DNA of 64,000 nt from a plasmid. Both the position numbers and the translations under genes were made by a program. The notes under the pieces were generated by a model that was not told where the DNA came from, did no database searches, and saw nothing but the letters and a program-made list of their open reading frames with translations. The DNA lies in sequence record NZ_CP090789.1, one strand, 5' to 3'. Below are positions 1 to 21,556 of the stretch, in pieces (within the stretch, counting starts at the first letter, position 1; the number at the start of each line of letters is the position of its first letter).

Positions 1-1
1 T

Positions 2-592
2 CAGCGCACTGCTCTTGGGCCGACAATTCCGATTTGGCTGGATCTCGTATTCGCGATGATTTTGAGTGATGCACCCAGCTTCTCTCGCCGACTGTGGGTC
101 AACATGGACGAGCTGGCGTCGATCGGCCGACTGTACAGCTTTGAGCCGGCTGTTTCGAAGGGGCGAAAGCACGGGCTCTGCGTTGTGGGCGGCCTGCAAG
201 ATGTGGTGCAACTCAAGATGAACCTGGGGCAGGATCCGGCCGACGCGGCCCTTGCCTGTTTCCGCAGTCTGCTGGCCTTGGGTGGGGCGAATGCTCACAC
301 GACCAAGCGCCTCGCGACGATGTTGGGCAGCCATGACGTCGAGCGGCATCCGATCGGCGTGAATCCGCAGTGGTGGAATCTCAATACGCGCGAGCGGAAG
401 ATCGACCGCGACGAGCTACTGGTGACGCCGTCGGAATTGGCGAACCTTCCTGACTTACAGGGTTATCTCAAGTACGGGAAGGATTGGCCCCTCACGAAGG
501 TGAAGTTCGGAGCTCGCGACTATCCGGTGCGGCATCCCGATTTCTTAGCCATGGACCTGCCTGCGATCGCAAACCTGATCATGGCGACATGA
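2..592 (+). CDS. Type IV coupling protein (TraG/VirD4 family), C-terminal fragment; 5' end lies outside the window
   Basis: ORF runs open from the window edge. The C-terminal pattern RE..LLTPSEL.NLP.L.GYLKYG.DWPL.KVKF matches the conserved TraG/VirD4 tail. Its position is consistent with being the last gene of the VirB-type T4SS operon that starts at 59.9 kb if the replicon is circular. Confidence 0.5.
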   Translation, partial: QRTALGPTIPIWLDLVFAMILSDAPSFSRRLWVNMDELASIGRLYSFEPAVSKGRKHGLCVVGGLQDVVQLKMNLGQDPADAALACFRSLLALGGANAHTTKRLATMLGSHDVERHPIGVNPQWWNLNTRERKIDRDELLVTPSELANLPDLQGYLKYGKDWPLTKVKFGARDYPVRHPDFLAMDLPAIANLIMAT

Positions 593-2350: not shown

Positions 2351-3220
2351 GTGACGCCCCCCCTCGAGCTCCCGGACGTGTTCCAGGCGACGCAATCGGC
2401 CATTGCGCCGGCGGCCGCCGCACGCGCTGACGATGCGACGCGGACGGTTGATTCCGTTCGTCGGGAGCGCGCGTGGCCGACGGATCTGGCGGAGCCACTG
2501 AAAGCGAATTCTCCGCGGATACTGCGGACGCTGAATGTCCGGCTGCAGCGCTATATTGCGGCTCCCGCAAAGTGGTTGCCGTCTCTGAACGCAGCCAATG
2601 GAAGCCGTCGACAGCAACGCAGTGAGCGACGCGTCGCGTGCGTCCAACTTCTCCGTGCATTGATCAAATACTGCGACCTCGCTTCGCTGCGGGTCGGGGC
2701 GCCTGGTGCGCAGGGGTGGGTCGACTTGACGCTCCCATTCTTTGCCTGCCAAGCGGGACTGCAAATTCGGCGCGCGGAGCGGGCGCTACGTGATCTGCAG
2801 GCGGCCGGCCTGGCCAAGGTGCGCCGGCAATGTGAGCGGCAAGAAACCGATCAAGGCGAGCGGTATAAGGGCCTCGCGGCGATCAAGTACCTTCCGCCGT
2901 CACTCTTCGAAGCGTTTGGCATGGGCGCGTGGCTTCGTCATGAGCGTGTCCGAGCGCATCTGCGCGCGCAGCGTCGATTGGCGGCCGCACGTAAGCGCGA
3001 TCGTCGTGTCGCACTCGAGATGAACCAGTTGCGCGCTATCGGCGGGTCGGTCGGCCGCCGCAAACGCTCGTCGCAAGAGCGGATTGCGGTGCCGGATGCG
3101 GACTTCGAGCGGATGATCATGCTTCGTGCCGGTCAGATCAAGGCTCGTCAACCCGACCTGGACCGTGAGGCGTGCTACGAGCAGGCACGTCGCGAATTGG
3201 CCTCTCCGTGCCGCACGTAG
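2351..3220 (+). CDS. Hypothetical basic protein; possible winged-helix DNA-binding or replication/partition-related protein
   Basis: 289-aa ORF with a GTG start, Arg-rich with coiled-coil-like RAERALRDLQAAGLAKVRR segments. No family confidently recognised. Confidence 0.4.
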   Translation: MTPPLELPDVFQATQSAIAPAAAARADDATRTVDSVRRERAWPTDLAEPLKANSPRILRTLNVRLQRYIAAPAKWLPSLNAANGSRRQQRSERRVACVQLLRALIKYCDLASLRVGAPGAQGWVDLTLPFFACQAGLQIRRAERALRDLQAAGLAKVRRQCERQETDQGERYKGLAAIKYLPPSLFEAFGMGAWLRHERVRAHLRAQRRLAAARKRDRRVALEMNQLRAIGGSVGRRKRSSQERIAVPDADFERMIMLRAGQIKARQPDLDREACYEQARRELASPCRT

Positions 3221-3484
3221 CGGTCGCTGTTTCCACTCTTTCCTTCTTTCTCTAGCTGATCGCGCCCGCCGTGAGGGTAGTGAGCGGACGCGCACAGATT
3301 TTCGTGCCGCTTTGGGTGCGAGCTCGCGTCGCTTACACGTCGAATTTCGCGGTTTTGGAGATCCGATTCGCGTTGTGCCCCACTGGGGTGTGGATAAATT
3401 CCCTTAAATGTCGGGACGTGTGCTCCTTAATTGTCGGGTCTTAATCAGATCCCATCTCTAACAAGAAGAGTGAAATCCAGCCCC

Positions 3485-3520
3485 GCGGCTTCGCCGCGAG
3501 GTATCACGCGGCGAAGCCGC
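3485..3520. repeat. Perfect 14-bp inverted repeat (GCGGCTTCGCCGCG / CGCGGCGAAGCCGC) with an 8-nt loop
   Basis: Seen directly. Lies in a ~1-kb ORF-poor gap downstream of the relaxase gene. No T-tract follows on either strand, so a protein-binding or structural site is more likely than a terminator. Confidence 0.6.
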
Positions 3521-3570
3521 TTGTCGAAATGGTGGTAGGCGAGCCCCAAACTTCGGCGAGCACGGGCGCT

Positions 3571-3591
3571 GCGTCAGCCAAAGGCTGACGC
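3571..3591. repeat. Perfect 9-bp inverted repeat GCGTCAGCC-aaa-GGCTGACGC
   Basis: Seen directly. Second strong hairpin in the same non-coding gap, followed by a GCGCGCGCGTGCGCGC alternating tract near 3645. Confidence 0.5.
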
Positions 3592-4298
3592 ACCACCACG
3601 TACGCGTAAATCGAGAGCGCCCGGCTCGCCGGCCGCTCTCTCAACGCGCGCGCGTGCGCGCCAACGCCTACCACGCAAACTGGACCCACCCGCCGAGCAG
3701 TCTGCAGAAGAGGGGGTAGACCTTGGGACGGGCGGGCCTCTGGTGAGACTTTCGAGGACGTTGCGGCGCTATCGCGTTGGTCCCGAGGCAGTCTCGACCC
3801 TATCGGGGACCGGCCGCTGGCAGTGGCTAGAACAGGTTCTATCCCGGCAGGATTGTCCAGATCTCGCTGGCCGACGACGAGGTGCACTCGCCGGCCGTGA
3901 CCCTGGCATTCGGCGCCGGACGTGGTCACCTTGCGCGCGATCGGGCGCAAGCACGGGGTCAGCGCGGTCGACGCCATCCTCGGCGGACGTCGAGATAGAC
4001 ACGCAGAACTGACGAAGCGCGACCTACGACGCGTTGCATAGAGCTCGAGCTGGTCGACGTACGGTTCGGTTCTCAGCGGCGGTAACGCGGCCCACCTTGC
4101 GAGAAATTCGCGGGAGATTCGAGCCGGAATGGAAACCCTGGTAGGACGAGATGGCGCGCGGAAGAATTGACGTGCCGCAGTATTGGCGCGGGCTTTCTAC
4201 TCACAAATTCGGAACCGGCTAGTGTTGTTTCAAACTCAGGCCGGAAAATCCAAATCGGAGAATAAAGGTGCAAAGGCGTGAATGGTAAATCCCACCAT

Positions 4299-7121
4299 TT
4301 AATCACGCACGCCTCGGCCACCCCGTCGATTTTCATTGGACTGCTCGCGCTCGATTTCACCCACGCCGGCGGCCTTCCGCTGCCGCTGCAGATATTCGGC
4401 GCGGGCTGCTGCGCGTTCCGCCGCGCTCATGCCTGCGAACGGCTTCTTGTTGATTCGCACACGATCTGTCTCGGCGCGGTCGGCGCTCGAATGCCGCATA
4501 TTTTCGACAATCGCTTCCGCTCGCGCTTGCCCGCTCAGCGCGACCAATGCCTTCCAGGCACGATCGTCCCGGCTTGCGAGGTAAGCGAGACGACCGCGGA
4601 TTGCCGGATCGATATGCTCGAGCGCGGACCCTGACCGCTTAAGTTGAGCGCGCTCCTTCGCCTGCAGCGGCCGGTTATCCGCACGTGCGCGCTGCCGCTT
4701 GTCGAGCGCGTCGACGTATTGGTCCACGGCGTTATCGAGCGTCACTGGTTGTCGGCGAACCGGTGACGATGCGGCGCTCGCGGTCCGTCGAAGAGCGAGG
4801 GTATGTCGGTAGCCCCGCTCGGCGCCGAGTTCGGTTTCGGGTCGAACACCGTAATACGCGCTGAACGACTTTTCATCAACACGCGACAACGCGCGACTCA
4901 GCGCAGCGGCATCGGCAAACTCGTCCTTCCCGGACGCAAGTGTCAGCGATGTCTTGTGCCGCGTCATTGCAACGTAGGCGAGCTCCGCATGCAGACTCTT
5001 GGTCGCCAGGATGTACGCACGATCGACAGTCATGCCCTGGCTCTTGTGGATCGTCAGCGCGTAGCCGTAGTCGATTTCGCCATACGTCGCAGAGTCGATC
5101 GAAATGCTGCGACCGTTATCGAGGCGCACGTGTAGGATCGACCCGGGCTTCGAGCTTTGCTCTCGAGCCTCGATCCGCTCGATGGTTCCAAGCGAGCCGT
5201 TCTTTACGTCGATATCGTAGTCGTTCCGGAGGAACATGATCCGCTCGCCGGCCGCCAGCATCATGGTACGCGAGTGCTGGCTCTCAGCCTGGTCACTACC
5301 ATCGACGCGCTCGACCAGCTGAACCGCGTGGTCGCTGCCAAGTTCCCCGCGCGCACGAAGGGCCGAGCGGATCGCGGTGTTGAGCCCGTCACGTTGAGCA
5401 TTTGTGTGCGTCAACAAGATCTGCGAATCGCCACGGTATGCGTCCCGGTCTGCCATGAATTGTGCGACGAGCATGTCGCGCGCAGCAGCGAGCGATTCGA
5501 ACAATTGGACCGATCCACGTTCCGCATAGGCCGACACCGCGGCCGGAATTTCATGCCTAGACAATGCCTCGGATGCCTGACGTTGCCAGTCTTCCTTCTG
5601 GCGCTTGATCTCGGTTAGGCTCGACAGCGCATTCACGGCTTCGGCCTTCTTGCTGACGGCGCGGAACGCGTCGCCGGCGTCAACCGCATGCAGCTGATAT
5701 GCGTCGCCGACCATTCTAATGCGGGCATTGGCCCTTTCGATGTGACCGAGCAGCTTCTCCATTTGCCGAGAACCGACCATCCCGGCCTCATCGACGAAGA
5801 CCACCGTTCGCTCGTCAAGTATTAAGCTCCCGCGATCCAGAGAGCCGAGCAGGCTGTGCAGCGTCCGACTTTGAATGCCGGCATCGCGCTCCATGTCGTC
5901 AGCGGTTTTCCCTTGGAGAGCCGCGCCGAGGACGCGGAAGCCATCGGATTCCAGCGCTTCTCGTGCGGCCTTGAGGACGTAGCTCTTCCCCGTCCCGGCC
6001 GCGCCGTTCACGACGACAAACTGCCGATCTGATACGAGAAGAGAAAACGCCGCATCTTGGCCGGCATTGAAGTTTCGCGAGATCCGCAGAACGTCGTGAC
6101 GAGCCATGGTCCCGGATCGCGTCGGGACGTTGGAGAGACGCTCGGCGCGTGCAACGAGCCGATCCTCAAGTTCCTGAAGCTCGCCGGAAGTAAACCAGTC
6201 GCCTTCTTTGCCGGGGACGCTCAGCGCGATCAACTCTTTCGAGTTCATCATGCGAGCATAAACTTGGCGGAATTGCTCTTCTCCGTCAGTGTTGCGGAAA
6301 ACGAATTGCTCGACGTCGCGACGCGAGAATATCGACTTGGTCGCCGTTAACGCGTGCACACCAATCGACGGATTGATCAGAAGACGTTTGCCGTTGCGTT
6401 CGGCCCGCGCGCGATTCTCGGCCAGCACGTTTTCCATTACGCCCCGTTCACCGGCGTAGCGGGCGACACCAACCTTGAGCGAAGGCTCAAGTTCGATACC
6501 GAGCGTCTTGTAACTCCGATGGTCGATGCGAGCCTCGATGCCGTGTCGTGCCATGAAGTGATTTGCGGTCACCGCCCATTCCTCGCGGACGTCGACCACG
6601 AACTGTCTGCTGCTCAGATAGCGGTCTTTGCCAGCCCCGCCTTTCTCAGGATGCTCGCGATTCCAGCGACGAAAGAACTGCTCGGGATCTCGTGGAATCC
6701 CGTCGTTCACGCGCTCCGTAAACATGATGTGGGCGTGAGGCTGTTCCAGACCATCGCTCGCAGCGGGGTTGTGGATTGCCCAAGAATAGGCGTGGCGTTC
6801 ACCGAGCGTGTTCTGGACAAACTCCCGAACCAATTCGACGCGCTGCTCATCGTTCAATTCGCGCGGGATGGAAACCTCGATCTCGCGGTACGGACGACCG
6901 TTGACTCGCTCGTACTGATCGGCAGCTTGCCAGAAAGCGCTCGGATCATGCTCGGCCCATGCCGGCATGTTTCCGCTCTCAGACATCTTCAGATCGCCGC
7001 GTTCCTCGTATCGCCCACCACGCGAGATATAGGCGTAGTGATCCTCACGTGCGATGTACTTGGCATGCTCGCCTGCCTTGGCAGCTTTGCCTGGTTTGAC
7101 GCTGAGGTGGTAGGTCGACAC
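4299..7121 (-). CDS. traA: Conjugative relaxase/helicase, TraA-like: MobA/MobL-family relaxase N-terminus fused to a RecD/TraA-type helicase
   Basis: 940 aa with a GTG start. The N-terminal MSTYHLSVKPGK...KYIAREDHYA signature and the HAHIMF histidine triad are typical of MobA/MobL relaxases. A Walker A motif (GAAGTGKSY) and helicase motifs sit in the central/C-terminal part. Architecture matches Ti/rhizobial TraA. Confidence 0.85.
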   Translation of the reverse strand: MSTYHLSVKPGKAAKAGEHAKYIAREDHYAYISRGGRYEERGDLKMSESGNMPAWAEHDPSAFWQAADQYERVNGRPYREIEVSIPRELNDEQRVELVREFVQNTLGERHAYSWAIHNPAASDGLEQPHAHIMFTERVNDGIPRDPEQFFRRWNREHPEKGGAGKDRYLSSRQFVVDVREEWAVTANHFMARHGIEARIDHRSYKTLGIELEPSLKVGVARYAGERGVMENVLAENRARAERNGKRLLINPSIGVHALTATKSIFSRRDVEQFVFRNTDGEEQFRQVYARMMNSKELIALSVPGKEGDWFTSGELQELEDRLVARAERLSNVPTRSGTMARHDVLRISRNFNAGQDAAFSLLVSDRQFVVVNGAAGTGKSYVLKAAREALESDGFRVLGAALQGKTADDMERDAGIQSRTLHSLLGSLDRGSLILDERTVVFVDEAGMVGSRQMEKLLGHIERANARIRMVGDAYQLHAVDAGDAFRAVSKKAEAVNALSSLTEIKRQKEDWQRQASEALSRHEIPAAVSAYAERGSVQLFESLAAARDMLVAQFMADRDAYRGDSQILLTHTNAQRDGLNTAIRSALRARGELGSDHAVQLVERVDGSDQAESQHSRTMMLAAGERIMFLRNDYDIDVKNGSLGTIERIEAREQSSKPGSILHVRLDNGRSISIDSATYGEIDYGYALTIHKSQGMTVDRAYILATKSLHAELAYVAMTRHKTSLTLASGKDEFADAAALSRALSRVDEKSFSAYYGVRPETELGAERGYRHTLALRRTASAASSPVRRQPVTLDNAVDQYVDALDKRQRARADNRPLQAKERAQLKRSGSALEHIDPAIRGRLAYLASRDDRAWKALVALSGQARAEAIVENMRHSSADRAETDRVRINKKPFAGMSAAERAAARAEYLQRQRKAAGVGEIEREQSNENRRGGRGVRD

Positions 7122-7151
7122 GGGAACCGGGTTGAGCGCTGTTTTCGGGTT

Positions 7152-7190
7152 GTTTCTATGCTAGCATAGAAACGCGTAAGCGCGCGTTGT
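7152..7190 (+). promoter_or_regulatory. Putative oriT: perfect 22-bp palindrome GTTTCTATGCTAGCATAGAAAC followed by an RSF1010-like nick core GCGTAAGCGCGCG
   Basis: Seen directly, 30 bp upstream of the relaxase start and between divergent relaxase and accessory genes. In RSF1010/R1162 the oriT is an inverted repeat ending in AGAAACCGG followed by TAAGTGCGCC|CT. Here the inverted repeat ends AGAAAC-GCG and is followed by TAAGCGCGCG. Confidence 0.6.
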
Positions 7191-7436
7191 ACTTCCCTGT
7201 AGACACGGGTTTTTGCGAGCTCCCTAGAGACCTGCGGTTTTGGGGTTTCAGATCGTGAAATGGGGTTGGATCGCTGGCGCGACGTCGGTATCGTCGGGAG
7301 GTGTGTGGTCTCGACGGTGCTGCATCAGGTCCAGTCCTCCATACGGGAGGGCTGGACTGCGGGCAGTAGCACATCGGACGATTTAGGTGCGGCTGCTGCG
7401 GAGTCGAATTCGTTTTTTTTGGGTGAGGTAGAACCT

Positions 7437-7871
7437 ATGTCACGTCCCGAATGGTTGGCGGTTCGGTTGCAGTTCATCAAGGGTCTGAATTCTCCGACCG
7501 AAGCACAGCGGCTGCTCGTTGAATTGGCTGAGCGGCCCGAACTCGACAAGTCTGACGCGCGGGTGCTCGACCAGTTGATGCGGATGGAACGTATCAACAT
7601 GAAGGCCGATGAGGCGAAGGCGGAGACGGAAAAGCTTCTGCGCGCGCGCCGTCTTGAACAAGATAGGGCGCGCGCGAAGGCACACGCGGAGTTGGGTGCT
7701 GTGGTGGCGGGAGTCGGATTTCCGCTGGAGCGGGACTTGTTGGCGGGCGTGCTGCTCGAAGCGCTCGAACGCCTCAAGGCCGACCCGGCGTTGCGCACGG
7801 GTTGGAGTTCGCGCGGCGTGGCACAGGCGAAGCCAAGCGATGCGGAGGAGAAAAAGGCCGACGCGGCCTAA
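7437..7871 (+). CDS. Small relaxosome-accessory-like protein (TraC/TraD/MobC-position gene), divergent from traA across oriT
   Basis: 144-aa ORF from the internal ATG with a GAGGT RBS. The listed ORF starts earlier at 7260, but the upstream part has no RBS and overlaps the oriT region. The protein is acidic/coiled-coil. Assignment is by position only. Confidence 0.45.
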   Translation: MSRPEWLAVRLQFIKGLNSPTEAQRLLVELAERPELDKSDARVLDQLMRMERINMKADEAKAETEKLLRARRLEQDRARAKAHAELGAVVAGVGFPLERDLLAGVLLEALERLKADPALRTGWSSRGVAQAKPSDAEEKKADAA

Positions 7872-7928
7872 GCCGGGTCGGCCCTGCATTGCTTCTTCGG
7901 TGGCCCGGTCTAACGGGCCACCGTGTCG

Positions 7929-9920
7929 TTACTGACCGTCCGGTGCGTCTGCTGCTTCCGCCTCACGCGTCGGGTGTTCGATCGGGAAAGTCGATTCCCG
8001 ATTCGTCAGCACATCTGGAAGCCATCCCGATTCAACCAGTTGCATTTCGGCCGCTGCGGCGGCATCTCCCTTCTTCATCGAACCCAGCGGCATTGCGGCC
8101 GTCGCCGAAACCGCCTGTGCCATTACATCGACGATGCGCTGTTTCGACACGTGGTTGAGGTAACTCGTCTGCGTCGGCTTCCAGTAGCGCACCATGTCCA
8201 CGTCGAGCACGTCGGCCAGCGTGTTGACGGCGTGCGGCTTGTTCTCCCGCGCGATTCCGTTGACCATCGCCGCAACGCAGAAGGCAAACAGGCCCGACAG
8301 AGTGTCGTCTGTCGCTTCCAGCAGCCACGGCAGCAAGTGGCGCAGTTCGTTCGGCATCGTTGCCGCCCATTTCGTGCGCTCGGCGTCGATGATCCGCCAT
8401 GCCGTACTGTCGGTCATGTCATCCGCAACGCTGGAGAGTTGGTCCAGACTCGGCCGGAAAGTCGCTTCGAGCGCGTGGTATTCGCGCCAATGATCGTCAA
8501 ACTGTTCCTCGAACACGTCAGGAATCATCGTGTACAAGAGGTAGGCCATCGCCACGTCCGGGCGCTTCGCAAGCTCCGCCTGCACAGCAGCAGTGCGATG
8601 AGCAGTCAGCCGAACGCAGAGAGTTTCGCTGTGGACGGGGCGGGCTTTCGTCGTCCGCTCGGCCTGCTCGCCGTGCTGACCACCGGAAACAGCGGCGGCG
8701 ACTTCCTGCGGTTTGACAACGCCGCGCCTGACTTCAAGTTCGCCATTTGCGTCGATCCAGACTTGCGCGCCAGCACCGGCTTTTTGCTCGTCGGTCCATA
8801 CCTCACAACGTTCTTCGAACGCGTCCAGCGCTGCCTGAGCGTCGCGCACGGCTTGATGGAGCACGTCGCCGTCGGCGTCCGAATCTTCCGTATCGTAGTG
8901 CGCGTCGAGCGCAGCATCCGCACTCTGGCACGCCTGTTCCAGCTTGCGATGTTCCGCTTTCTCCTTCTTCGTCAGTTCGCGGCGCTCCGGGTCCAACTGG
9001 CGCACACGCATCGCCATGAGCGCCTCTCGTCGTACTGCCGCGTCCACCCACGCCCAACCCTCGGCGCGCACTTCCTCGGCGGCGGCCGTCAGCTTTTCCA
9101 CGGCAAGGCGGTTTAGCAATTCGAGGTCGGCCACAAATCCGCCGTTTCCGTCGCCGCTGAACAGGTCGCGTCGCACATATCCGCCCGCGTCCTCGTAGGC
9201 GTCGAGGCCGATGAATCGCGCGAGGGAATTCGTGGCCGCATTCACTTCGGCTTTGGTGATGACCGCCCGAATCTCGCGGGGGCTGCGCTGCCACTCCTGA
9301 ATCGATTCGAACCAAATCCGCTCTTGTTGTTCGGTGTCGTCGGACAGTGCGAGCGCGCACGCCTGCTCGTAATCCATCCCGTCATCACGAAACACTTCTA
9401 GCAGCTTCGGCGAAATGTTCGCCAGCTTCAATGCGCGACGGACAACCGTTTCTGACACGGAAAACCGAGCGGCAATGTCGGGAATTGATCGGCCCTCCGC
9501 AATGAGTTCGCGGAACGCGACGCACTGGTCGGCGATGTGCATCCCTTCGCGCTGGACGTTCTCCGCAAGCGAGATCGCCAGCGCTTCGCCGGCGGAGACG
9601 ATCAGCACGGGCACGAGATCCGTATCCGACCAGCGGCCTCGGGATTTCAGGAGGTCCAGTCCGCCCAAGCGGCCTTGGCCGGCGCAGATTCCGAACGGAC
9701 GAAGGCCGTTCCTTTGTCCATCTTCATCGATCGGATGCCCTACGAGGTTTTGCAGCAAGCCGTTAGCGTCGATGTCGTCAGCAAGCGCGGGGATGTTCTT
9801 GGCGGGCTTCTTCCGCACGTTGCGGGGTGACACGCACAGCTGGCCAAATGGGATGTAGTTGATTTTCCCGAACGTGTACGGGACGGGGTTGGCGAGGATC
9901 GTATCTGCTACTTGGTTCAC
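7929..9920 (-). CDS. Large ParB/Srx-domain (ParB-like nuclease domain) protein of plasmid leading regions
   Basis: About 664 aa from GTG 9920 with a GGAGA RBS. The N-terminal ParB-like box (GLLQNLVGHPIDEDG...RRAL..A) is recognisable, followed by a long acidic C-terminal region. The ORF track extends the start to 9962 through the inverted-repeat arm. Confidence 0.7.
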   Translation of the reverse strand: MNQVADTILANPVPYTFGKINYIPFGQLCVSPRNVRKKPAKNIPALADDIDANGLLQNLVGHPIDEDGQRNGLRPFGICAGQGRLGGLDLLKSRGRWSDTDLVPVLIVSAGEALAISLAENVQREGMHIADQCVAFRELIAEGRSIPDIAARFSVSETVVRRALKLANISPKLLEVFRDDGMDYEQACALALSDDTEQQERIWFESIQEWQRSPREIRAVITKAEVNAATNSLARFIGLDAYEDAGGYVRRDLFSGDGNGGFVADLELLNRLAVEKLTAAAEEVRAEGWAWVDAAVRREALMAMRVRQLDPERRELTKKEKAEHRKLEQACQSADAALDAHYDTEDSDADGDVLHQAVRDAQAALDAFEERCEVWTDEQKAGAGAQVWIDANGELEVRRGVVKPQEVAAAVSGGQHGEQAERTTKARPVHSETLCVRLTAHRTAAVQAELAKRPDVAMAYLLYTMIPDVFEEQFDDHWREYHALEATFRPSLDQLSSVADDMTDSTAWRIIDAERTKWAATMPNELRHLLPWLLEATDDTLSGLFAFCVAAMVNGIARENKPHAVNTLADVLDVDMVRYWKPTQTSYLNHVSKQRIVDVMAQAVSATAAMPLGSMKKGDAAAAAEMQLVESGWLPDVLTNRESTFPIEHPTREAEAADAPDGQ

Positions 9921-10127
9921 GGTTTTTCTCCGGTTATCGCCTACAGCACACCGCCGAGGCATAAAATAATTATAGGACGAAACGTCCTTATAGTGTCGGA
10001 TTTAAATAAAACCCACAAACCTTTATCGGGTATTCATATTATTTTGCGTATAGGGACGAAACGTCCTATAATTACAACCATGCCCTAGCGATTCCGCCGT
10101 GGGCGATAACCGGAGAAAAACCGTGAA
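9916..10127. promoter_or_regulatory. Divergent control region bounded by perfect 26-bp inverted repeats that contain the RBS and GTG start of both flanking genes; it holds two copies of a 13-bp core GGACGAAACGTCC inside TATAGGACG-AAA-CGTCCTATA palindromes
   Basis: Seen directly. Arm 9916-9941 is the exact reverse complement of arm 10102-10127 (GGCGATAACCGGAGAAAAACCGTGAA). Palindromic sites lie at 9971-9992 and 10049-10072. Both divergent ORFs therefore begin with the same peptide (G)DNRRKTVNQV. Confidence 0.7.
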
Positions 10128-10542
10128 TCAAGTTGAACTGGAAGTGAAGCGTTACGAGTGGCCCGATCATCAGCGCGCGGCCTTCTTCCCGCATTATCTG
10201 AAGCGTCGAGCGGCATGTGCGCAATTGGCCGTCGTGCGCTGGGCCAAAATTCTGTTCCCGGCCTATACGACGTCCGGCTGGCACTTTTATGGGCTGGAAT
10301 CCAAGGGCTTCTATGTCGCTCCGCTGCTGCTGAAGGACGAACAAATCGAAGTCGGTGGCCACCGCATGAGCGCCGATGCGTTCGGCGTACTGGTTACGCT
10401 GGCGGCTCTGGAGGAAATGGGGGAGTCGGAACTGTTCACCGCGTTGCATGGCTTTGCTTGCCTTCACGATGAGGCACGGGCAATTCTCGGCGGCGGTGAG
10501 ATCGCCCGCGACGAGATGATTTCGGCAGAAATTCCGTTCTAA
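10123..10542 (+). CDS. Hypothetical protein divergent from the ParB-like gene; possible KlcA/ArdB-like antirestriction protein (weak)
   Basis: About 139 aa from GTG 10123 (or GTG 10099), with an RBS identical to that of the ParB-like gene. Size and leading-region context fit small antirestriction proteins, but no motif is confidently recognised. Confidence 0.45.
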   Translation: MNQVELEVKRYEWPDHQRAAFFPHYLKRRAACAQLAVVRWAKILFPAYTTSGWHFYGLESKGFYVAPLLLKDEQIEVGGHRMSADAFGVLVTLAALEEMGESELFTALHGFACLHDEARAILGGGEIARDEMISAEIPF

Positions 10543-10583
10543 CGACATGAGGCAACCCGGCGGAAACGCCGGGCTAAGGCACA

Positions 10584-10787
10584 ATGATCTATTCGATTAG
10601 CGAAGTAGAGGCCGCGATCAACATCTGGCGGAACCGGCTCGAATCTGGCGACGATGCGGCGCTGTGCGCCCCGGCGCGTGCGCTGGCCGAGCCGTACGGG
10701 CTGATGGTGTATGAAGGTCGCGAAACGATCAGCGATCATGAGATGACGGCGAAGGCTCGCGAAGCAATGGCTGTGCTCGTTGCCTGA
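10584..10787 (+). CDS. Small hypothetical protein (67 aa)
   Basis: ORF with a weak RBS and a codon-usage-consistent frame. No recognised domain. Confidence 0.3.
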   Translation: MIYSISEVEAAINIWRNRLESGDDAALCAPARALAEPYGLMVYEGRETISDHEMTAKAREAMAVLVA

Positions 10788-11105
10788 CGCCGCCTGCGCG
10801 ACGAGTGCAGCGCGGATACCCGCGATAGACCCTGTGCTTGCCGCGGGCGAGGGGAGACCCTCCCTCCTGCAAGCCGGGGTTTTGTTGCTCGACCAGGTGT
10901 CGCGCGCGCCGCGCGCCCGGATCGAGGCGCACGGGTGCCCCGCGCCCGCGTAGGCGGGCGCAAGGGAGAGCGCCGGCCCGCCGCAACGCGGCGGGACGAT
11001 CCGGCTCAGCCTTCGATTATCGGCATGGGGTAGTCAAGCGGCCGTGAGGCCGCGTGTTTCCTCCGCGGCGAAGCCGTGGGGGCTGGATATGGGATGGACT
11101 GAAAA

Positions 11106-11381
11106 ATGACGCAAGATCTACGGGCCACTGTGCGGCCCGAATGTTTGCAACCGGCGCGACTGTGGATGGAACCGACGGCGGGTGAAATCCGCCTGGTGCT
11201 CGATCGCTGCGGATTCACGCGACGAAACGCAAGCATTTTCCTCGGCATCGAAGAGACCGGCCGAAGCGTGGGCCGCTGGCTCAGCGGGGAGCACTCGATT
11301 CCCTATTCGGCCTGGGCGCTGCTTTGCGCCCGGGCCGGTCTCGGAAACATATGGGAAGAGGGCGGCACCGACGCGTCGTAG
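11106..11381 (+). CDS. Small helix-turn-helix DNA-binding protein (XRE/Cro-like)
   Basis: 91 aa. The segment IRLVLDRCGFTRRNASIFLGIEETGRSVGRWLSGEHSIPYSAWALL looks like an HTH. Confidence 0.45.
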   Translation: MTQDLRATVRPECLQPARLWMEPTAGEIRLVLDRCGFTRRNASIFLGIEETGRSVGRWLSGEHSIPYSAWALLCARAGLGNIWEEGGTDAS

Positions 11382-11741
11382 CGTCGGCTCCGCCCGCGGC
11401 TTCTATACCTTCATGTTCGCGTGAGAGGGTTTGTTTTCGATCGCGCCGGCGCCGATCAGGTCACCGGCCTGGTCGGCGCCGGCGCGATCGAATTACGAGG
11501 ACGGTGATGCCGGCCTTCAAACGCGGCCGCGGAACATTTGGCCGGCGCGGAAGGCTGCACGCATCGCGTGTTCGATATCGGAAATGCGAACCTCCTCCGG
11601 CGTGTACTCCGGAATTTCGCGGTCAATGATCGGATGGCCAAAGGTTGATTCGGCGATTGCGTTCAACACAGCGTCAACAAGGTAGCGTTCCATGGTATGT
11701 CCAGTTCGGTGGCCCGCGGCGCTTGGCGCCGCAGGCAGTTT

Positions 11742-12386
11742 TTAGGCAGCGATGGCGAGGCGGTCGATCTCTAGCCGGTCGCAAGCAGCGGCGTAGTAGG
11801 TCGGATCGAGCTCGATGCCGATGTAGTAGCGGCCGAGCTCGCGCGCGGCAACGCATGTCGAGCCCGACCCAGCGAACGGATCAAGGACGACGTCGCCAGG
11901 GGCCGTGTACGTCTCGATGAGTCGCTTGAGGCACGGAACCGGCTTCTGCGTGGGATGGTGCCGATTGCCGGAATATTCCCAGCGCATCACGTCAGGCAGC
12001 GGCGTAGCCGGCACAGCCGGCTGGCCCTTCGCGAGCACGTACGCGGATTCGTGGCGGTACGCGACAAAGCGCGATTTCGACGCATAGGACTTCGCGAAAA
12101 CGATGTGGCCGACGACGCGCAGGCCCGCGCGCTTCCACGCGTCGAAAAAGCGGTCCGTTTTCGTCCAGCCGTAGAAGCTCACGCAAAGCGTGTTCGGCTT
12201 CATGACGCGGTACACCTCCGCGAATGCCGGCGCCAGCCAGTCCGATTTCACATCGTTTGCGATCGAGCGCCCGGAGCGATCGTGATAGTTGACGAGATAG
12301 GGCGGGTCAGTCAGGACGAAGTCGACCACGCCGTCCGGAATGGACGGCAACACTTCCAGGCAGTCGCCGTTATAGAGAAAGCTCAT
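11742..12386 (-). CDS. Orphan beta-class DNA methyltransferase (N6-adenine or N4-cytosine type)
   Basis: 214 aa. The DPPY catalytic motif (motif IV) precedes the FAGSGST SAM-binding motif (motif I), the beta-class order. No restriction endonuclease partner is visible nearby. Confidence 0.85.
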   Translation of the reverse strand: MSFLYNGDCLEVLPSIPDGVVDFVLTDPPYLVNYHDRSGRSIANDVKSDWLAPAFAEVYRVMKPNTLCVSFYGWTKTDRFFDAWKRAGLRVVGHIVFAKSYASKSRFVAYRHESAYVLAKGQPAVPATPLPDVMRWEYSGNRHHPTQKPVPCLKRLIETYTAPGDVVLDPFAGSGSTCVAARELGRYYIGIELDPTYYAAACDRLEIDRLAIAA

Positions 12387-12807
12387 GTATGCGCTCCACA
12401 GTTGGGGGGCGGATAGCGCGTTTCCGTGTGCGGCTCCGAAATGTCGCTACCCGGCGCTTGCGAGCGCCGCGCAGGGGTTGCCGGTCAAGGGACCGTGGAA
12501 TAACGGGGAGGCAGTCCGTAGGAGGGCACCGTTTATGCCGCGAAAGCCCTTGAAAGAGTGGGCGCGCGCCGGAGCGTGCGGGCCCGTTCTGGCCGGCGAA
12601 ACCAGCGCGGCGATCGTTTGCGACGGGTAGCGACATCCATTTAGAACCCCGGGCGCTTTATCTCCTTTCGGGCGTGGTTAGAGCCACTAGCCGAGGCCTG
12701 GAGGGGGAGGTTCGGCGTGCGGTTACTCATGAGGGCGGGCCTCGGTTTATGGGCCGCCCGATCTGGAGTGCGCCGCGCGCCCGGAAGGGGATAGGCTGCG
12801 GGCTGTG

Positions 12808-12826
12808 ACCATCGTCGATGCTCAGG
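12808..12826 (-). terminator. GC hairpin GCCCCGGC-atg-GCCGGGGC immediately downstream of the 12858 stop; candidate intrinsic terminator with a weak U-tract
   Basis: Seen directly: perfect 8-bp stem with a 3-nt loop, about 30 nt after the stop of the fused methyltransferase gene. Confidence 0.35.
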
Positions 12827-12857
12827 AACAGGCCCCGGCATGGCCGGGGCTTCGAAA

Positions 12858-14831
12858 TTACGCCGTCAGGATCATCAGCGCGGTATTGACGGAGCTTGCA
12901 GACTCGGCGAACGTATCGGCCGGCAGGTCCACCCACTCTCCACCGTGGGCCGCCACGAGACGCTGAAGCGCTTCACGCCGGCGCGGACCATTCGCGCAGA
13001 CCGCCACGAGTCGGCCACCTGGCTTGAGCATCTCGAGCGCATGCCGAATATGCCGAATGTCATCGCCGTGCGAGAACGGTGGGTTCATGACGATCCGGTC
13101 GAATGGTGTCGGCGCCACGTACGTGAGGAAATCCGTGTTGATCACGTCGGCGCCGGCCTCGCTGACGCGCAGGTGATCGCACAGGCGGGCGCTGATCTCG
13201 ACGGCGGTCCGCACCGCAGCGCCACCCGTCGCCTCGCGGATCGCGCGCAGGATCCGGCCGGTGCCGGCACTCGGTTCGAGAACGGTATGTCCCGGCTCGA
13301 TCGCGGCCAGCTCGACCATGCGCGCAGCGAGTGATACGGGCGTGGGGAACAGCTGCGAGGCGCTCACGACCTGCACCCCATGCTTCAGCTGCTCACGCAT
13401 TGCATTGAACTGCGCGCCGTCGTCGCCGGCGGCCGCGTGCTCAGTCGTCGAGCCGTTCGTCGGAACGGTGGTCACATCGCTCGGGCGCTCGACGGATGCG
13501 GCTGCCGTGAGATCCGGCGCGGCGAGCTCATCCGTGTTTCCAGCCGGCGAGATTGCCGGCGGGTTGACGCGTTTAACGTCGGTCAGGTAGACCGCCACCA
13601 ATGCACCGCGGTGGACCACCGAACGCACGCGGTGCCGGCCGACCGCGCTAGCGACGTCCGCTGCGCCCTTGATGTCCGGCCGATACCTGCCCGGTCGAAC
13701 GGCGCCGGCGCCGAGCTCGCGCGAACCCTTGTAGTCGCGATGCGTGGCGTCCCATTCGGCCTTGGTCATTGCGTGAAAGCCGGTACCGGGGTAGTTGCAA
13801 AGGGGCGGCAGCTTGCTTGCTGCCTTCACCGTGGCCGCCACTTCGGCGGACGGAGCGCGGTAGTCCTTGATTTCTTCGATGCCCCGTACCGGCACGAATC
13901 GCGCGTTGGTGGTCACGCTGCAGATTGCGCCGGCGGAGCGATTCACGCGCGTCACCACAAGCCACTCGCCGCGTACGAGTACCTGGCCCCCGGGCACGAT
14001 GTCGAAACCATCGGCCTTGATGCCGCCTTGTTCCGCGAGCATCGCGCGCTCGTAGTTCAGTCGGCAATCGTAATGCGCAATCCAGCGTTCCCAATGTGCG
14101 CGATTACGTCCTTCACGCTCGAGGTACTGGTCACAGGTCGCGCGGAAGTTATCGGGGTCCGCGTTGATTGCGCTCCAAAGGCCGTGCAGACTCGACGCCG
14201 AAGCCACCATGAGGGCACGCTCTGCGGTCAGCGTCGGCGATCGCAGCGCATCAGCTGCAGCCTTCAGGAGATCGAGGCTACGCGTGCACTTGCGGCGGTC
14301 GGCCTCGATGCGCTTAATCCGACGATGGCGGACGTCCGCACGCTCCTTGTATTTCGCGTGTTGCAGCGCCCCCGCTGCGCGGCGCTCCCAATATTCGTGG
14401 GTGTCCCACATCGAGACCGCTTTGCGCATGGCGTTGTCGATGCGCTCCGCATCGCGTCGCGCGCGGGCTTCGCTGTGGTGACCGACCAGGATCGGCTGAC
14501 CGAGTGGGATATGCTCGGTGATCGATGTGACGACGGCATGCGCGGCCTTCGCGTCCGCCGCGCGCCGTTCGCTATAACCATCGAATCGGTCGGCACGCTC
14601 TTCCGCGCGTTCGACGAGCGACGTGTCCTCGTCGTCGATTTCGCCGCACAGCTCGATGAGAAGATCTTCGCGGGCCGGCGTCCAGCTCGGCGCGACGAAC
14701 AGATCCTGTTTCGGCGCGAACCGGAACCCGGCATCGTGAACACGTCGATACAGGCCTTCCTCGAGGCGCGCGGTGCTGTACAGACGCAGCTTGTTGTCGT
14801 CGGGGGAATAGGTTGCCGTCAGGTGTTGCAT
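12858..14831 (-). CDS. Fusion protein: conserved plasmid-associated N-terminal domain (DUF3560-like) plus a C-terminal class I SAM-dependent methyltransferase with an NPPF motif
   Basis: 657 aa from ATG 14831, with a GGAG RBS 5 nt upstream (the ORF track extends to 14987 without an RBS). The C-terminus has motif I VLEPSAGTGRIL and motif IV NPPF, which are amino-methyltransferase signatures. The N-terminal ~400 aa match my memory of DUF3560 proteins found next to methylases on plasmids. Confidence 0.7.
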   Translation of the reverse strand: MQHLTATYSPDDNKLRLYSTARLEEGLYRRVHDAGFRFAPKQDLFVAPSWTPAREDLLIELCGEIDDEDTSLVERAEERADRFDGYSERRAADAKAAHAVVTSITEHIPLGQPILVGHHSEARARRDAERIDNAMRKAVSMWDTHEYWERRAAGALQHAKYKERADVRHRRIKRIEADRRKCTRSLDLLKAAADALRSPTLTAERALMVASASSLHGLWSAINADPDNFRATCDQYLEREGRNRAHWERWIAHYDCRLNYERAMLAEQGGIKADGFDIVPGGQVLVRGEWLVVTRVNRSAGAICSVTTNARFVPVRGIEEIKDYRAPSAEVAATVKAASKLPPLCNYPGTGFHAMTKAEWDATHRDYKGSRELGAGAVRPGRYRPDIKGAADVASAVGRHRVRSVVHRGALVAVYLTDVKRVNPPAISPAGNTDELAAPDLTAAASVERPSDVTTVPTNGSTTEHAAAGDDGAQFNAMREQLKHGVQVVSASQLFPTPVSLAARMVELAAIEPGHTVLEPSAGTGRILRAIREATGGAAVRTAVEISARLCDHLRVSEAGADVINTDFLTYVAPTPFDRIVMNPPFSHGDDIRHIRHALEMLKPGGRLVAVCANGPRRREALQRLVAAHGGEWVDLPADTFAESASSVNTALMILTA

Positions 14832-14865
14832 GTGTGCTCCAGGTTGGTTTTTGCTGACCGGGACC

Positions 14866-15335
14866 CAAGATTCTGAGTCCCCGCGTATTGGGTTCTGTCG
14901 AGTCGGCGTGCTGCGCTTCGCAGCTGCCGCCGGTCCCCTTAGTTCGTCGTCCCGCGAACGGACGAGCGCCGGCCGGCGCCGGGTCAAGGGATCACGCGCG
15001 GGGTGGGGCGGGAGGGAGCGCAGCGCACGACACGGCCTCGCGCGCCTTGACGCGGCAAAGGCCGGCGCTACGGTCGCGGAACTAGGACGACGAGCTCAGG
15101 GGACGGGAAGGTCGGTAGCGGCCGCATGCCGATGAGGCAGAACGCCGCGCGCGGCGAGCGCGCTATCTGAGGCGCGAAGCGGCTCAGGTGGACATGGGGT
15201 GGCCAGCGCCGGGGCGTGCTGCGGGACGCAGCTCGGCCCCTAGAGCGTGGTGGGGTATCCGGGCCGCGGAGAAAGCGGCTCGCGTGGCAAAGCGATCACG
15301 TCGGTTTGGTGCGCGAGCCGGCGCGGCTCGGCTCG
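14866..15335. repeat. Copy A of a ~470-bp structured direct repeat (about 95% identical to 18140-18612), immediately upstream of the minus-strand methyltransferase-fusion gene
   Basis: Seen directly by alignment of the two regions. It contains an 18-bp long-range imperfect inverted repeat (14935-14952 with 15085-15102), the 14-bp palindrome GCGCCGGCCGGCGC, and other GC hairpins. The ORF-track entries inside it (14830..15135, 15188..15475 and twins) are duplicated shadow ORFs. Confidence 0.8.
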
Positions 15336-15702
15336 ATCCGGTTGCTCCGGGCCATGAGAAAAGGGGCTTTCGCCCCTTCCCTTACCGCAGCACCACGCAC
15401 ATGCGCCGTGGTGTCCACCAGACCAGAAGCGCGTATTCATTGCTGAAAAACTCCGCGTTGTCGTGGTCGATGTAGATCACTGGATCGATCATGGTCATCT
15501 CCTTTAAATGTGGGACCGCGAACATGCGGTCCCATCTTTATTTATGCGTGCACGCCGAATCGGCGCAAAAAATCCGGGCCGCCGACAACTACCCGAACTC
15601 GACCGGCCGCGCCGGTGCTGCGCAAGCCATGCCTCGGCAGTTCTTGCCGCCGCTAAGGCGACCGGTCTGTCTGCCCACCGGGGCACGTGTCCTCTGCCTC
15701 CA

Positions 15703-17532
15703 TCACGAGTCGAAGGCAAACTCGAAGGTGGTTTGCGCCCCAGCCGTCGTAGCCTTGTGCGCCCAGGCATGCCGCGCGTTGTCCGGCAGGTCACCAAAGC
15801 GCACCCCTTGCTGGACCAGCTGCTCGGCGTTGTGCCCGAGATTTAGGCCGAGCCGGTCCTTGAAGTCGGTGCGTCGCGCCACCTCATCGTGCTTGAGCTG
15901 CTGCTTGTGGGAAAGCGTCAGCGCGCCGTAGCTCAGATACCACCGATAGCCGGCCGTGATTCCGCCGGGATGAAAACCGCGATCGTGCATGTCGGCCAGT
16001 CGATCGGCCTCGAATTCCAGGATCATCTCGGCCGACTCGACATCGACGTCGAATCGCGTGCCCGTCCGAACCTCCCATGTGCTCTTGCCGTCACCGAGAT
16101 CCATGACTGTCGGCGCGCAGGGCGAGCGCTCGGTCAATGCTTCGAACAGCGGGTCACGAAAGCCCGTCCACTGATCCGCTGTTTCGTCCCATTCAGTGCC
16201 GACCTTCAGGAAAAGTGGTTCCGGCAACGGTGCCGGCGCGACCGGCGTGATTTCCGGAACGGAATAGCTCATGCCACGCTCGCAGATGTCGCGGTAGTCT
16301 GCCCAGATCGCGAAGGGCGCCGCGAGTCCCTGCAGGGACTGCATCGCGTCGACGGCGATCATCATCGGTAACGGTAACGTCTGGAATTTCGGGCGCGTCC
16401 CGGCGCGCCGCGCGCGGATCCTCTCCTCTCGATCGATTGTCAGCATGTACCGGACGAGCTCGCGGACGGTCGCGGCGCCGAACGTATCGGGCTCGAGGCA
16501 GATGTACCCTTCTCGGATCGTGCGACCGACCCAGTTGCGGCGCGACCAGTCGTAGCGGATTGCGCGGATGAATCGATTCAGCTGCTGCAGACCGCGCGCA
16601 TAGGCGTAACGATCTCCGTCGAATCGGATCATCTCGGCAAGCGACCGATCATCGGCTTGCTGGCAGGTCCAGCAGCCGGTGCGTGCATCGCAATGTCCGC
16701 GGCGCACGCGCTTGCCGGCGGACGCCTCCTCGAAGGTGAGATCCGACACGATCGCGCAGCTGCTGTTACCGGCATGCGCGTAGATCCGCTTCGTCTCATC
16801 GAAATCCGTGTAGCTGTCGCGCAGACCGGACGATACTTCGCCAATGAACTCCCAGACGTCTTCGGTCGACCAGCCCGCAATCGGGCAGAGCGTGAGCTCC
16901 CCGTCACTGTTGCGGACCGGCGTATCCGCGCGATCGCCGCGCGCGGTCATCTTCGCTTTGCGCCGCTCGCTCTCTTCGAACCGTGTGCCGAGCAATACGA
17001 CCGGCTCGGCATAACCGGCCTTCCGTGCCTCGCGGTACAGCTGGTTGCGGCCGACGCGGCTCGGCTCGATTTTCAACGAAACCGAGCAGTCGGAGTTCGT
17101 GCCAGCGTAGCTTGGCAGGGCGCGGCCGGTCAGCACAGCCAGCTGCCAAGACGTCGCAAGCGACGGCGCCACAACCTGCACGCGGACGTCGAAGCCGTGC
17201 TCGCGACCGAACGCCCCCATCTTCTCGAGCTCACGCAGTGCATGCTCGACCATTTCAGGCGACTCCACCAGGGTGTCAGCCGTGATCACGCAGACGAGCG
17301 GCCGGCCGCCGGCGGCCGCGTGCAGGCGGGCGGCATCAAGCGCGAGACTGGTCACGACTCCGCTATCCTTGCCCGCGCTGAATTGGCAAATCACCATTCG
17401 GTTGTCGGTGAAAAGCGCCCCCAGCGCTTCGATCGCGCGCGCAACGCGCTGGTCGAGAGAGGGGCGCATTTCGGCCTGCAGGAACATTTCGACCGTTTCC
17501 ATCGAATTCAGCCGAAATACCAGACGTTGCAC
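15703..17532 (-). CDS. PAPS-reductase/PP-loop ATP-pyrophosphatase family protein (DndC/IbrA-like) with a large C-terminal extension; start uncertain (GTG 17532 or ATG 17502)
   Basis: SGGKDS-like PP-loop QFSAGKDSGVV near the N-terminus, a Cys cluster CDARTGCWTCQ, and roughly 350 aa of unassigned C-terminal sequence. Proteins of this type accompany ParB-like genes on mobile elements (IbrAB) and act in DNA sulfur modification (DndC). Confidence 0.65.
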   Translation of the reverse strand: MQRLVFRLNSMETVEMFLQAEMRPSLDQRVARAIEALGALFTDNRMVICQFSAGKDSGVVTSLALDAARLHAAAGGRPLVCVITADTLVESPEMVEHALRELEKMGAFGREHGFDVRVQVVAPSLATSWQLAVLTGRALPSYAGTNSDCSVSLKIEPSRVGRNQLYREARKAGYAEPVVLLGTRFEESERRKAKMTARGDRADTPVRNSDGELTLCPIAGWSTEDVWEFIGEVSSGLRDSYTDFDETKRIYAHAGNSSCAIVSDLTFEEASAGKRVRRGHCDARTGCWTCQQADDRSLAEMIRFDGDRYAYARGLQQLNRFIRAIRYDWSRRNWVGRTIREGYICLEPDTFGAATVRELVRYMLTIDREERIRARRAGTRPKFQTLPLPMMIAVDAMQSLQGLAAPFAIWADYRDICERGMSYSVPEITPVAPAPLPEPLFLKVGTEWDETADQWTGFRDPLFEALTERSPCAPTVMDLGDGKSTWEVRTGTRFDVDVESAEMILEFEADRLADMHDRGFHPGGITAGYRWYLSYGALTLSHKQQLKHDEVARRTDFKDRLGLNLGHNAEQLVQQGVRFGDLPDNARHAWAHKATTAGAQTTFEFAFDS

Positions 17533-18098: not shown

Positions 18099-18139
18099 GC
18101 TCTTCCTCTCTGGCGTACCGCGCGACGCGGTGTTAGCTG

Positions 18140-21483: not shown

Positions 21484-21518
21484 ACGCGGGGGTTGGTGGG
21501 GCGGTTATCTCTGTCATA

Positions 21519-21538: not shown

Positions 21539-21556
21539 TTTTGCGTAACCGACCCC

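Follow-up and report, generated by a model that had tools for sequence, protein, structure and literature searches.

Genes and features at the locus

The DNA analysed here is a 64-kb stretch of plasmid record NZ_CP090789.1 with a G+C content of 61.5%, and it is this whole stretch that we call the window. It comes from a Burkholderia plasmid whose closest records are B. contaminans pB1701, 93.5% identical to the window across 6800-7900, and B. pseudomultivorans pINT23. The intergenic region at 7122-7436 separates two divergent genes, a relaxase gene (traA) on the minus strand and a gene for a TraD-like protein on the plus strand, and holds a perfect inverted repeat without a spacer between its arms, followed at once by a short spacer and a predicted nick region (Table 1). 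An open reading frame that overlaps this element on the minus strand (7156-7374) was rejected, as its frame breaks in pINT23 and B. multivorans.

Table 1. Positions of the predicted transfer origin, its neighbouring genes and other features of the window
Feature	Position	Strand	Basis or remark
Type IV coupling protein gene, 3' end, TraD_Ftype-like	1-592	+	NCBIfam TIGR02759, 3e-18
traA, 940-aa relaxase-helicase	4299-7121	-	GTG start 7119-7121; Pfam MobA_MobL 2.8e-30, AAA_30 1.8e-52
22-bp inverted repeat GTTTCTATGCTAGCATAGAAAC, arms GTTTCTATGCT and AGCATAGAAAC	7152-7173	+	Perfect, 11-nt arms, spacer-free; predicted relaxase recognition hairpin
Spacer GCG	7174-7176	+	Read from sequence
Spacer GCG plus nick region TAAGCGCG/CGTT	7174-7188	+	Predicted nick G7184/C7185; aligned base for base with RSF1010
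TAAGCGCGCG	7177-7186	+	Read from sequence
Block TAGACACGGGTTTTTGCGAGCTCCCTAGAGAC	7196-7240	+	Conserved only among B. cepacia-complex plasmids
Hairpin GTCCAGTCCTCC-ATAC-GGGAGGGCTGGAC, 12-bp stem	7330-7358	+	Conserved only among B. cepacia-complex plasmids
T8 tract	7413-7420	+	Just upstream of traD ribosome-binding site
traD-like accessory gene, 144 aa	7437-7871	+	Pfam PF06412 TraD, 5.2e-05, above gathering score; ATG 7437
Predicted leading region	7929-18098		Pfam and NCBIfam matches; pINT23 annotation
ParB-like gene, large protein	7929-9962	-	Predicted leading region
Antirestriction gene, PF03230	10099-10542	+	Predicted leading region
DUF3717 gene	10584-10787	+	Predicted leading region
Orphan N6/N4 DNA methylase gene	11742-12386	-	Predicted leading region
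DUF3560-methyltransferase fusion gene	12858-14987	-	Predicted leading region
PAPS-reductase-like gene	15703-17532	-	Predicted leading region
Rep_3 initiator gene	43610-44830		Preceded by iterons, 42.8-43.6 kb
Type IVb pilus genes	48.9-57.6 kb
VirB4-like ATPase gene	60580-63111

At its N-terminus TraA has a relaxase domain of the MobA/MobL (MOBQ) kind and behind it, as judged by Pfam, a RecD-like SF1 helicase; with 577.4 bits it scores just below the cutoff (590.45) of the TraA_Ti model TIGR02768. Over residues 3-194 it can be aligned to the relaxase domain of RSF1010 MobA (PDB 2NS6, E 1.2e-36), and in this alignment the predicted catalytic residues Y31, E80/E82, H117 and H129/H131 stand opposite MobA Y25, E74/E76, H112 and H120/H122 (MobA numbering from PMC6856555). 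When the relaxase domain was used as a tblastn query, it was 47-52% identical to MobA/TraA proteins of small enterobacterial and Acinetobacter plasmids and 43% identical to RSF1010-type MobA, but only about 30% identical to Ti TraA. The earlier note on this DNA had placed a MobA/MobL-family TraA relaxase 30 bp from the palindrome, and both parts of that statement hold: the domain is among the Pfam matches listed in Table 1, and the distance from the palindrome edge to the GTG start codon is exactly 30 nt.

On the other side of the element, the TraD-like protein is probably a relaxosome accessory protein. It is not a MobC: it falls in PF06412, the Ti TraD family, and BLASTP against RSF1010 MobC found no detectable similarity (E 0.48). 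Homologues of this protein, 41-92% identical in amino acid sequence, adjoin the element in all 15 loci of the conservation set described below, and in Acinetobacter and Klebsiella relatives, too, the relaxase gene has a TraD-annotated neighbour. The relatives' traD genes are annotated from the position equivalent to 7437, with one annotated from 16 codons upstream. We rejected a start at ATG 7260, the alignment upstream of 7437 being rich in indels.

A two-part motif that occurs once in the window

A perfect 22-bp palindrome ending in AGAAAC, then 3 nt, then TAAGCGCGCG, as read previously, were all found in place. Since the G+C content of the window is 61.5%, G+C-rich palindromes are not rare in it, and when the window was simulated 400 times with a first-order Markov model, 15 of the runs (about 4%) contained perfect palindromes of at least 22 bp, every one of them G+C-rich. 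The palindrome at 7152-7173 has a G+C content of at most 40%, and perfect palindromes of at least 22 bp with so low a G+C content appeared in 0 of the 400 simulations. The composite motif AGAAAC-NNG-KAAN-YGCGC has one copy in the window and none in 100 dinucleotide-preserving shuffles. By itself, the 9-mer KAAN-YGCGC of the nick region is at chance level (25 matches in the window, with 28 expected), and therefore significance comes from the combination of the two parts and from conservation, not from TAAGCGCGCG alone. Allowing up to two mismatches over the whole 64 kb, we found no second copy of the hairpin-plus-nick motif beyond the one at 7168-7185, nor did the 64 kb hold a second copy of the palindrome half-site.

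It could be argued that the palindrome is a product of chance without a function, given that about 4% of simulated windows hold a perfect palindrome of this size. Against this, no simulated palindrome was A+T-rich, and the element is invariant over 15 loci with diverged flanks, always lying between traA and traD. We give a functionless palindrome next to no probability, and the conservation data exclude a chance origin. The statistical case rests on the two parts combined and, above all, on conservation.

Conservation of the element in Burkholderiaceae

Alignment of the traA-traD intergenic regions of eight Burkholderia and Paraburkholderia plasmids showed that all 22 positions of the palindrome and most of the following 12 nt are invariant, while the remaining spacer is largely unalignable between clades. 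A scan for the exact palindrome in one genome per species, covering 185,579 species, added seven loci, of which one is in Caballeronia and the other six are in Paraburkholderia. At each of the seven, the palindrome lies between a TraA homologue, 30-40 nt away, and a TraD homologue, and a ParB-like gene comes next in five of them, namely the five that extend far enough.

The resulting conservation set holds 14 distinct sequences from 15 loci in Burkholderia, Paraburkholderia and Caballeronia. Over these 14 sequences the mean pairwise identity is 1.00 for the palindrome (at seven of the 15 loci the palindrome is identical by construction, as it was itself used to retrieve them; the other eight, the window included, were retrieved via the relaxase region) and 0.90 for the next 12 nt, as against 0.51 for the 45-nt left flank and 0.53 for the 33-nt right flank. 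Conservation of the core NNG-(T/G)AA-N-CGCGC is one-sided and always on the side away from traA (15 of 15 loci), and gene order and strands at all 15 Burkholderiaceae loci are the same as in the RSF1010-type locus. Of the plasmids in PLSDB, 13 have a relaxase domain that shares 70% or more identity with that of the window, and each of them carries the element. Even between relaxase domains with no more than 71% identity, the palindrome does not vary at its centre.

Considering the gene that follows traD, the palindrome might alternatively be a parS-like or KorB-like site for the ParB-like protein (7929-9962), which is encoded two genes away. The consensus arms of chromosomal parS are TGTTTCAC and GTGAAACA, which the outer arms TGTTTC...GAAAC of the palindrome recall, and the order TraA, palindrome, TraD, ParB-like gene is kept in the five scan loci that reach far enough. 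Partition-related proteins have also been reported to bind the oriT regions of NAH7 (PMC12421886). However, the half-sites are spaced 11+11 here and 8+8 in parS, the palindrome is a single copy in 64 kb with no further half-sites, and RSF1010 and small Mob plasmids share its arms with no ParB gene in the stretches read. Moreover, a separate repeat array at 40.5-42.5 kb is a better candidate for the centromere. Taken together, we regard a partition site at this position as very unlikely.

A probable RSF1010-type oriT and its predicted nick site

The feature that best accounts for the element is an origin of transfer. In all of 11 lineages (the window, three other Burkholderiaceae variants, two Acinetobacter plasmid types, small plasmids of Klebsiella, E. 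coli and Salmonella, a Proteus IncQ1 plasmid and the RSF1010 type) the pattern GTTTCT...AGAAAC, N3, (T/G)AAN-YGYGC is found directly upstream of the relaxase gene. RSF1010 and nine further related lineages have the same outer 6 bp of the stem, GTTTCT/AGAAAC, as the window. The inner stem varies by lineage yet stays complementary (C/G, CAAT/ATTG, ATGCT/AGCAT), which is the pattern that would be expected of a hairpin under selection. For example, the sequence upstream of the relaxase gene reads GTTTCTATGCTAGCATAGAAAC-GCG-TAAGCGCGC in the window, GTTTCTCAATGAAATTGAGAAAC-GTC-TAAGCGCGC in the 5.7-kb A. baumannii plasmid, GTTTCTCGGAGAGAAAC-GCG-GAAGCGTGC in the 47-kb Acinetobacter plasmid (also given as CTGTTTCTCGGAGAGAAAC-GCG-GAAGCGTGC) and CCAGTTTCTCGAAGAGAAAC-CGG-TAAGTGCGC in the RSF1010 type.

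The nick of RSF1010 has been mapped experimentally to TAAGTGCG/CCCT (PMC4814116). When the window sequence AGAAAC-GCG-TAAGCGCG/CGTT is set against AGAAAC-CGG-TAAGTGCG/CCCT of RSF1010, the spacing is the same, with matches at 16 of 21 positions. Carrying the RSF1010 site over base by base predicts a nick in the plus strand between 7184 and 7185, and we hold this exact position, which comes from homology to the mapped nick, to be rather probable. The RSF1010 nick had previously been given as TAAGTGCGCC/CT, which would put the nick in the window 2 nt further on (between 7186 and 7187); with the RSF1010 nick at TAAGTGCG/CCCT, this placement has to be shifted to 7184/7185.

From these comparisons we conclude that the core at 7152-7188 is very probably an RSF1010-type (MOBQ1-like) oriT, belonging to a Burkholderia plasmid that looks self-transmissible. 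The earlier proposal of an RSF1010-like oriT between the relaxase and accessory genes thus appears well founded, being supported by the homology of the relaxases, by the geometry of the locus, by the agreement in stem base, spacing and core, and by the conservation of the element within diverged flanks. In the literature searched, we found no Burkholderia oriT of the MOBQ/TraA kind, the only Burkholderia oriT paper being on a MOBF plasmid, Ptw. The element is what a specialist would expect beside a MOBQ relaxase gene, an expected feature that was previously unannotated. At the same time, it is not a replication origin, because the iterons and the Rep_3 gene lie elsewhere.

We also weighed whether the true nick could lie elsewhere, for example in the gene-poor stretch downstream of traA (3221-4298), with 7152-7186 being a relic or a secondary site. 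This 1.08-kb stretch has no convincing gene, its open reading frames break frame in relatives, and it contains inverted repeats, one of them perfect with 14-bp arms (3485-3520). On the other hand, it is without the hairpin-plus-nick motif, which in the 64 kb is found at 7168-7185 only; it is only 78-82% identical in the closest relatives, with no block comparable to the invariant palindrome; and every related lineage examined has the motif directly upstream of the relaxase gene. A nick away from the palindrome is, in our estimate, highly improbable.

Other features of the intergenic region

The rest of the region contains three further features (Table 1). The block at 7196-7240, which includes a weak terminator-like hairpin followed by T5 (7196-7214), is possibly an accessory-protein or promoter region. 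The T8 tract, to which the earlier note had also drawn attention, is present as described; pB1701, pINT23 and B. multivorans either lack it or differ there, so that it is not conserved in relatives, and nothing singles it out. A scan of 6900-7700 for sigma-70 promoters found none, and the only other signals there were weak terminator-like hairpins.

The hairpin at 7330-7358 follows the predicted nick by about 145 nt and precedes traD by 79 nt. Its stem is identical and its loop variable in four B. cepacia-complex plasmids, its DNA fold has an energy of -14.4 kcal/mol (z -4.15), and the stem has T.G wobble pairing on the plus strand only. It is not a dispersed repeat, and an Rfam search in E-value mode over 3100-7600, which includes it, found no match. 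It could be a separate strand-specific element, acting on the entering strand or in the traD leader. A role as a single-stranded promoter or priming site seems unlikely, considering that only about 145 nt, containing no gene, separate the hairpin from what would be the 5' end of the transferred strand.

A possible second use of the palindrome

Both RSF1010 and Ti plasmids are known to have autoregulation at oriT (a 2007 study by Cho and Winans is cited in PMC4700958). The palindrome might be mainly a duplex operator for a dimeric protein that controls the traA and traD promoters, either instead of or besides serving as a hairpin; candidates for the bound protein are the TraD-like protein, an upstream Crp/Fnr-like regulator, or TraA itself as an autorepressor. 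The palindrome is perfect and spacer-free with all 22 positions invariant down to 71% identity of the relaxase domains, and it lies only 30 nt from the start of traA, which means that traA transcription crosses it or begins near it. In addition, MobA of RSF1010 requires only the base of the stem (PMC4814116), so that the invariance of the palindrome centre exceeds the known need of that relaxase and hints at an additional constraint. What speaks against an operator is that a mapped oriT has homologous counterparts of both the outer arms and the nick core adjoining them on one side, and that an operator alone leaves unexplained why the conserved flank is asymmetric and held at a fixed spacing, that of RSF1010. 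We also found no promoter-like hexamers, and by inspection the palindrome is unlike CRP or FNR sites. A predominantly regulatory palindrome therefore seems to us rather unlikely.

Perhaps the site has both uses, with a single-stranded hairpin for nicking and rejoining by TraA and, as a duplex, an operator or docking site for a dimeric TraD-like or ParB-like protein. We raise this because the symmetry is perfect and spacer-free and because the centre is invariant across relaxases that are only 71% identical. Judged jointly with the strand-specific role suggested above for the 7330-7358 hairpin, such a double use is distinctly unlikely in our view; if true, it would couple the initiation of transfer to the control of the divergent tra promoters.

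Predicted transfer and its consequences

Returning to the oriT, a course of events can be proposed from the homology with RSF1010/R1162. The relaxase domain of TraA would recognise the plus-strand hairpin of the 22-bp repeat, namely its base and the adjacent single strand, with the TraD-like protein helping to open the DNA. TraA would then cut TAAGCGCG/CGTT at 7184/7185, leaving Tyr31 joined to the 5' phosphate of C7185, and its RecD-like helicase would unwind the plasmid as the coupling protein passes the complex to a type IV secretion system. The plus strand would enter the recipient 5' end first, beginning at traD, followed by the anti-restriction/methylase region, with traA and the inverted repeat last, as the RSF1010 model has it, and the regenerated hairpin and nick site would permit rejoining after one round. 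What the analysis shows directly is the sequence features with their conservation, the homology of relaxase and site, and the arrangement of the genes; that the site is nicked, exactly where and on which strand, and what TraD does are inferred from comparison with these relatives.

Transfer is predicted to run rightward from 7185, through traD and into the 7.9-18 kb segment. Leading regions of plasmids are reported to be enriched in certain gene families, methylases and anti-restriction genes among them, whose orientation makes the transferred strand their template (PMC11541004). The genes found in this segment fit that description in part: the ParB-like, methylase, DUF3560 and PAPS-reductase genes are on the minus strand, in keeping with the rule, and the antirestriction and DUF3717 genes are not. 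Beyond them lies a mutagenesis cassette of the imuA/imuB/dnaE2 type. The content and orientation of these genes thus back rightward transfer independently, but only partly.

The plasmid looks self-transmissible, as the window includes a coupling protein gene, type IVb pilus genes and a gene for a VirB4-like ATPase. The coupling protein would be what the relaxosome docks to; pB1701 and pINT23 have its gene annotated in full length at the same position. At the same time, MOB-suite typing (via PLSDB) lists six of the seven relatives examined as "non-mobilizable", although these relatives have a gene for a relaxase and, wherever the sequence read extended far enough, one for a coupling protein. 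For this reason, the transfer potential of plasmids in cystic-fibrosis- and plant-associated Burkholderia is probably underestimated.

These results provide a concrete oriT prediction, with nick and direction, for a plasmid family of Burkholderia, Paraburkholderia and Caballeronia. The predicted polarity makes the anti-restriction, methylase and ParB-like genes candidates for establishment functions. More generally, the pattern GTTTCT...AGAAAC, N3, KAAN-YGYGC is usable in searches for MOBQ1-like oriTs.

Comparison with known systems

Among the closest known systems is RSF1010/R1162 (IncQ1, MOBQ1), which has a mapped nick and a MobA of known structure (2NS6). The two systems share the hairpin base GTTTCT/AGAAAC, the distance of 3 nt from AGAAAC to the core, and a core TAAG-N-GCG/C, with the inverted repeat lying 5' of the nick on the nicked strand. 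The homology between their relaxase domains (E 1e-36, about 43% identity) includes the catalytic residues, and in both loci a relaxase gene on the minus strand is followed by the repeat and nick and then by a divergent accessory gene on the plus strand (mobA and mobC in RSF1010). There are differences as well. The palindrome of the window has perfect 11-bp arms and a paired centre, while in RSF1010 a 3-nt loop separates 10-bp arms that contain one mismatch; at one core position the window has a C (TAAGCGCG) and RSF1010 a T (TAAGTGCG); and the bases 3' of the nick are CGTT rather than CCCT. The fusion partner of the relaxase is a RecD-like helicase here and a primase in RSF1010, and the host is a large conjugative plasmid rather than a small mobilisable one. 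The accessory protein also differs, being of the TraD family instead of MobC, which is a difference between relaxosomes and not between DNA sites.

Outside Burkholderiaceae, the relaxase domains closest to that of TraA are those of Acinetobacter and small enterobacterial MOBQ plasmids (47-52% identity). Acinetobacter plasmids of 41-47 kb, which are typed as conjugative (MPF_T) and which we take to be of the pNDM-BJ01 type, have the same long TraA and a divergent TraD, and the core 9-mer of the 5.7-kb Acinetobacter plasmid is identical to that of the window. The inner stem and loop of the Acinetobacter and enterobacterial sites, on the other hand, differ from those of the window. The papers searched held no experimental nick mapping for these sites, which are read here from sequence.

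The earlier note had also likened the element to pTi-type oriTs. For Ti and At plasmids (MOBQ2) the likeness extends to the relaxase-helicase architecture of TraA (TIGR02768, 577 bits, just under its cutoff), to the TraD-family gene beside oriT and to the nick core TAATTGCGC, which fits KAAN-YGCGC and follows an inverted repeat, in this comparison with one pAt sequence read directly; the Ti oriT core has itself been described as related to that of RSF1010 (PMC4700958). The likeness does not extend to the repeat, since the Ti inverted repeat ACGCGTCGC...GCGACG is unrelated to that of the window. Moreover, Ti plasmids have traC, whereas next to the oriT of the window there is no TraC (PF07820) homologue but only TraD, which has an N-terminal extension of about 75 aa relative to Ti TraD. 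The module thus joins an RSF1010-like relaxase domain and oriT to a Ti-like relaxase-helicase/TraD architecture, a combination that it has in common with the 41-47 kb Acinetobacter plasmids.

Sequence between the probable oriT and traD

Between the predicted RSF1010-type transfer origin (oriT core, 7152-7188) and the divergent accessory gene traD lies a hairpin whose stem is unchanged, and whose loop differs, among four B. cepacia-complex plasmids. It was not found in the Paraburkholderia loci, had no match in Rfam, no dispersed copies and no T-run 3' of the stem. A minus-strand open reading frame overlaps both this hairpin and the 22-bp palindrome of the oriT core, and was considered as a gene; it is unbroken in the B. 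contaminans plasmid pB1701 and fragmented in the B. pseudomultivorans plasmid pINT23 and in B. multivorans, which argues that it is probably not a gene.

In two related plasmids, from P. ginsengisoli (L006, 3475-4278) and B. gladioli (L007, 3554-4375), the conserved oriT core is separated from traD by an inserted HNH endonuclease gene.

Other features of the window
Feature	Position	Strand	Location or content
Stretch without convincing gene	3221-4298		beyond the 3' end of traA; about 1.08 kb
72-aa ORF	7156-7374	-	overlaps palindrome and hairpin
Hairpin GTCCAGTCCTCC-ATAC-GGGAGGGCTGGAC	7330-7358		oriT-traD interval
Mutagenesis cassette	19347-27000		SOS-response-associated peptidase, imuA, Y-family polymerase and error-prone polymerase genes
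Arrays of GATAGCTATC(C/T) repeats	40528-41268; 42426-42483		11-bp phasing; either side of ORF 41293-41979
Iteron-like direct repeats (AAAGGTCRTGGTTTGTGGGG)	42800-43565		about 10 copies, directly upstream of Rep_3 gene
Rep_3 initiator gene	43610-44830		
Type IVb pilus genes	48876-57607		secretin, PilO-like, T2SSE ATPase, T2SSF, shufflon-type PilV N-terminal region
VirB4-like ATPase gene	60580-63111		after type IVb pilus genes

Regions on either side of the transfer locus

The gene-poor stretch downstream of the relaxase gene traA shows 78-82% identity with the closest relatives. In pB1701, pINT23 and B. multivorans its open reading frames are disrupted by loss of frame. At 3485-3520 it contains an inverted repeat whose 14-bp arms match perfectly. 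The mutagenesis cassette is on the side of oriT that is predicted to lead in transfer, and many Burkholderia plasmids have it at about 91% identity. Separately, two 96% identical copies of a 300-nt direct repeat (14846-15145 and 18129-18428, 3283 nt apart) flank two adjacent genes of the predicted leading region, one of them PAPS-reductase-like.

Replication, mobility type and pilus genes

The iteron-like repeats beside the Rep_3 gene are probably the replication origin. The GATAGCTATC(C/T) arrays, which include the longest perfect palindrome in the window (24 bp, 41206-41229), may serve as a centromere or a regulator-binding array.

MOB-suite typing in PLSDB scores six of the seven related plasmids examined as non-mobilizable, the B. 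gladioli plasmid being the only one typed MOBQ. The relaxase gene is present in all seven, and the coupling-protein gene in each of the three whose examined stretch extended to its position.

The type IVb pilus genes of the window form a thin-pilus set resembling that of IncI plasmids, here on a plasmid whose relaxase is of the MOBQ type.
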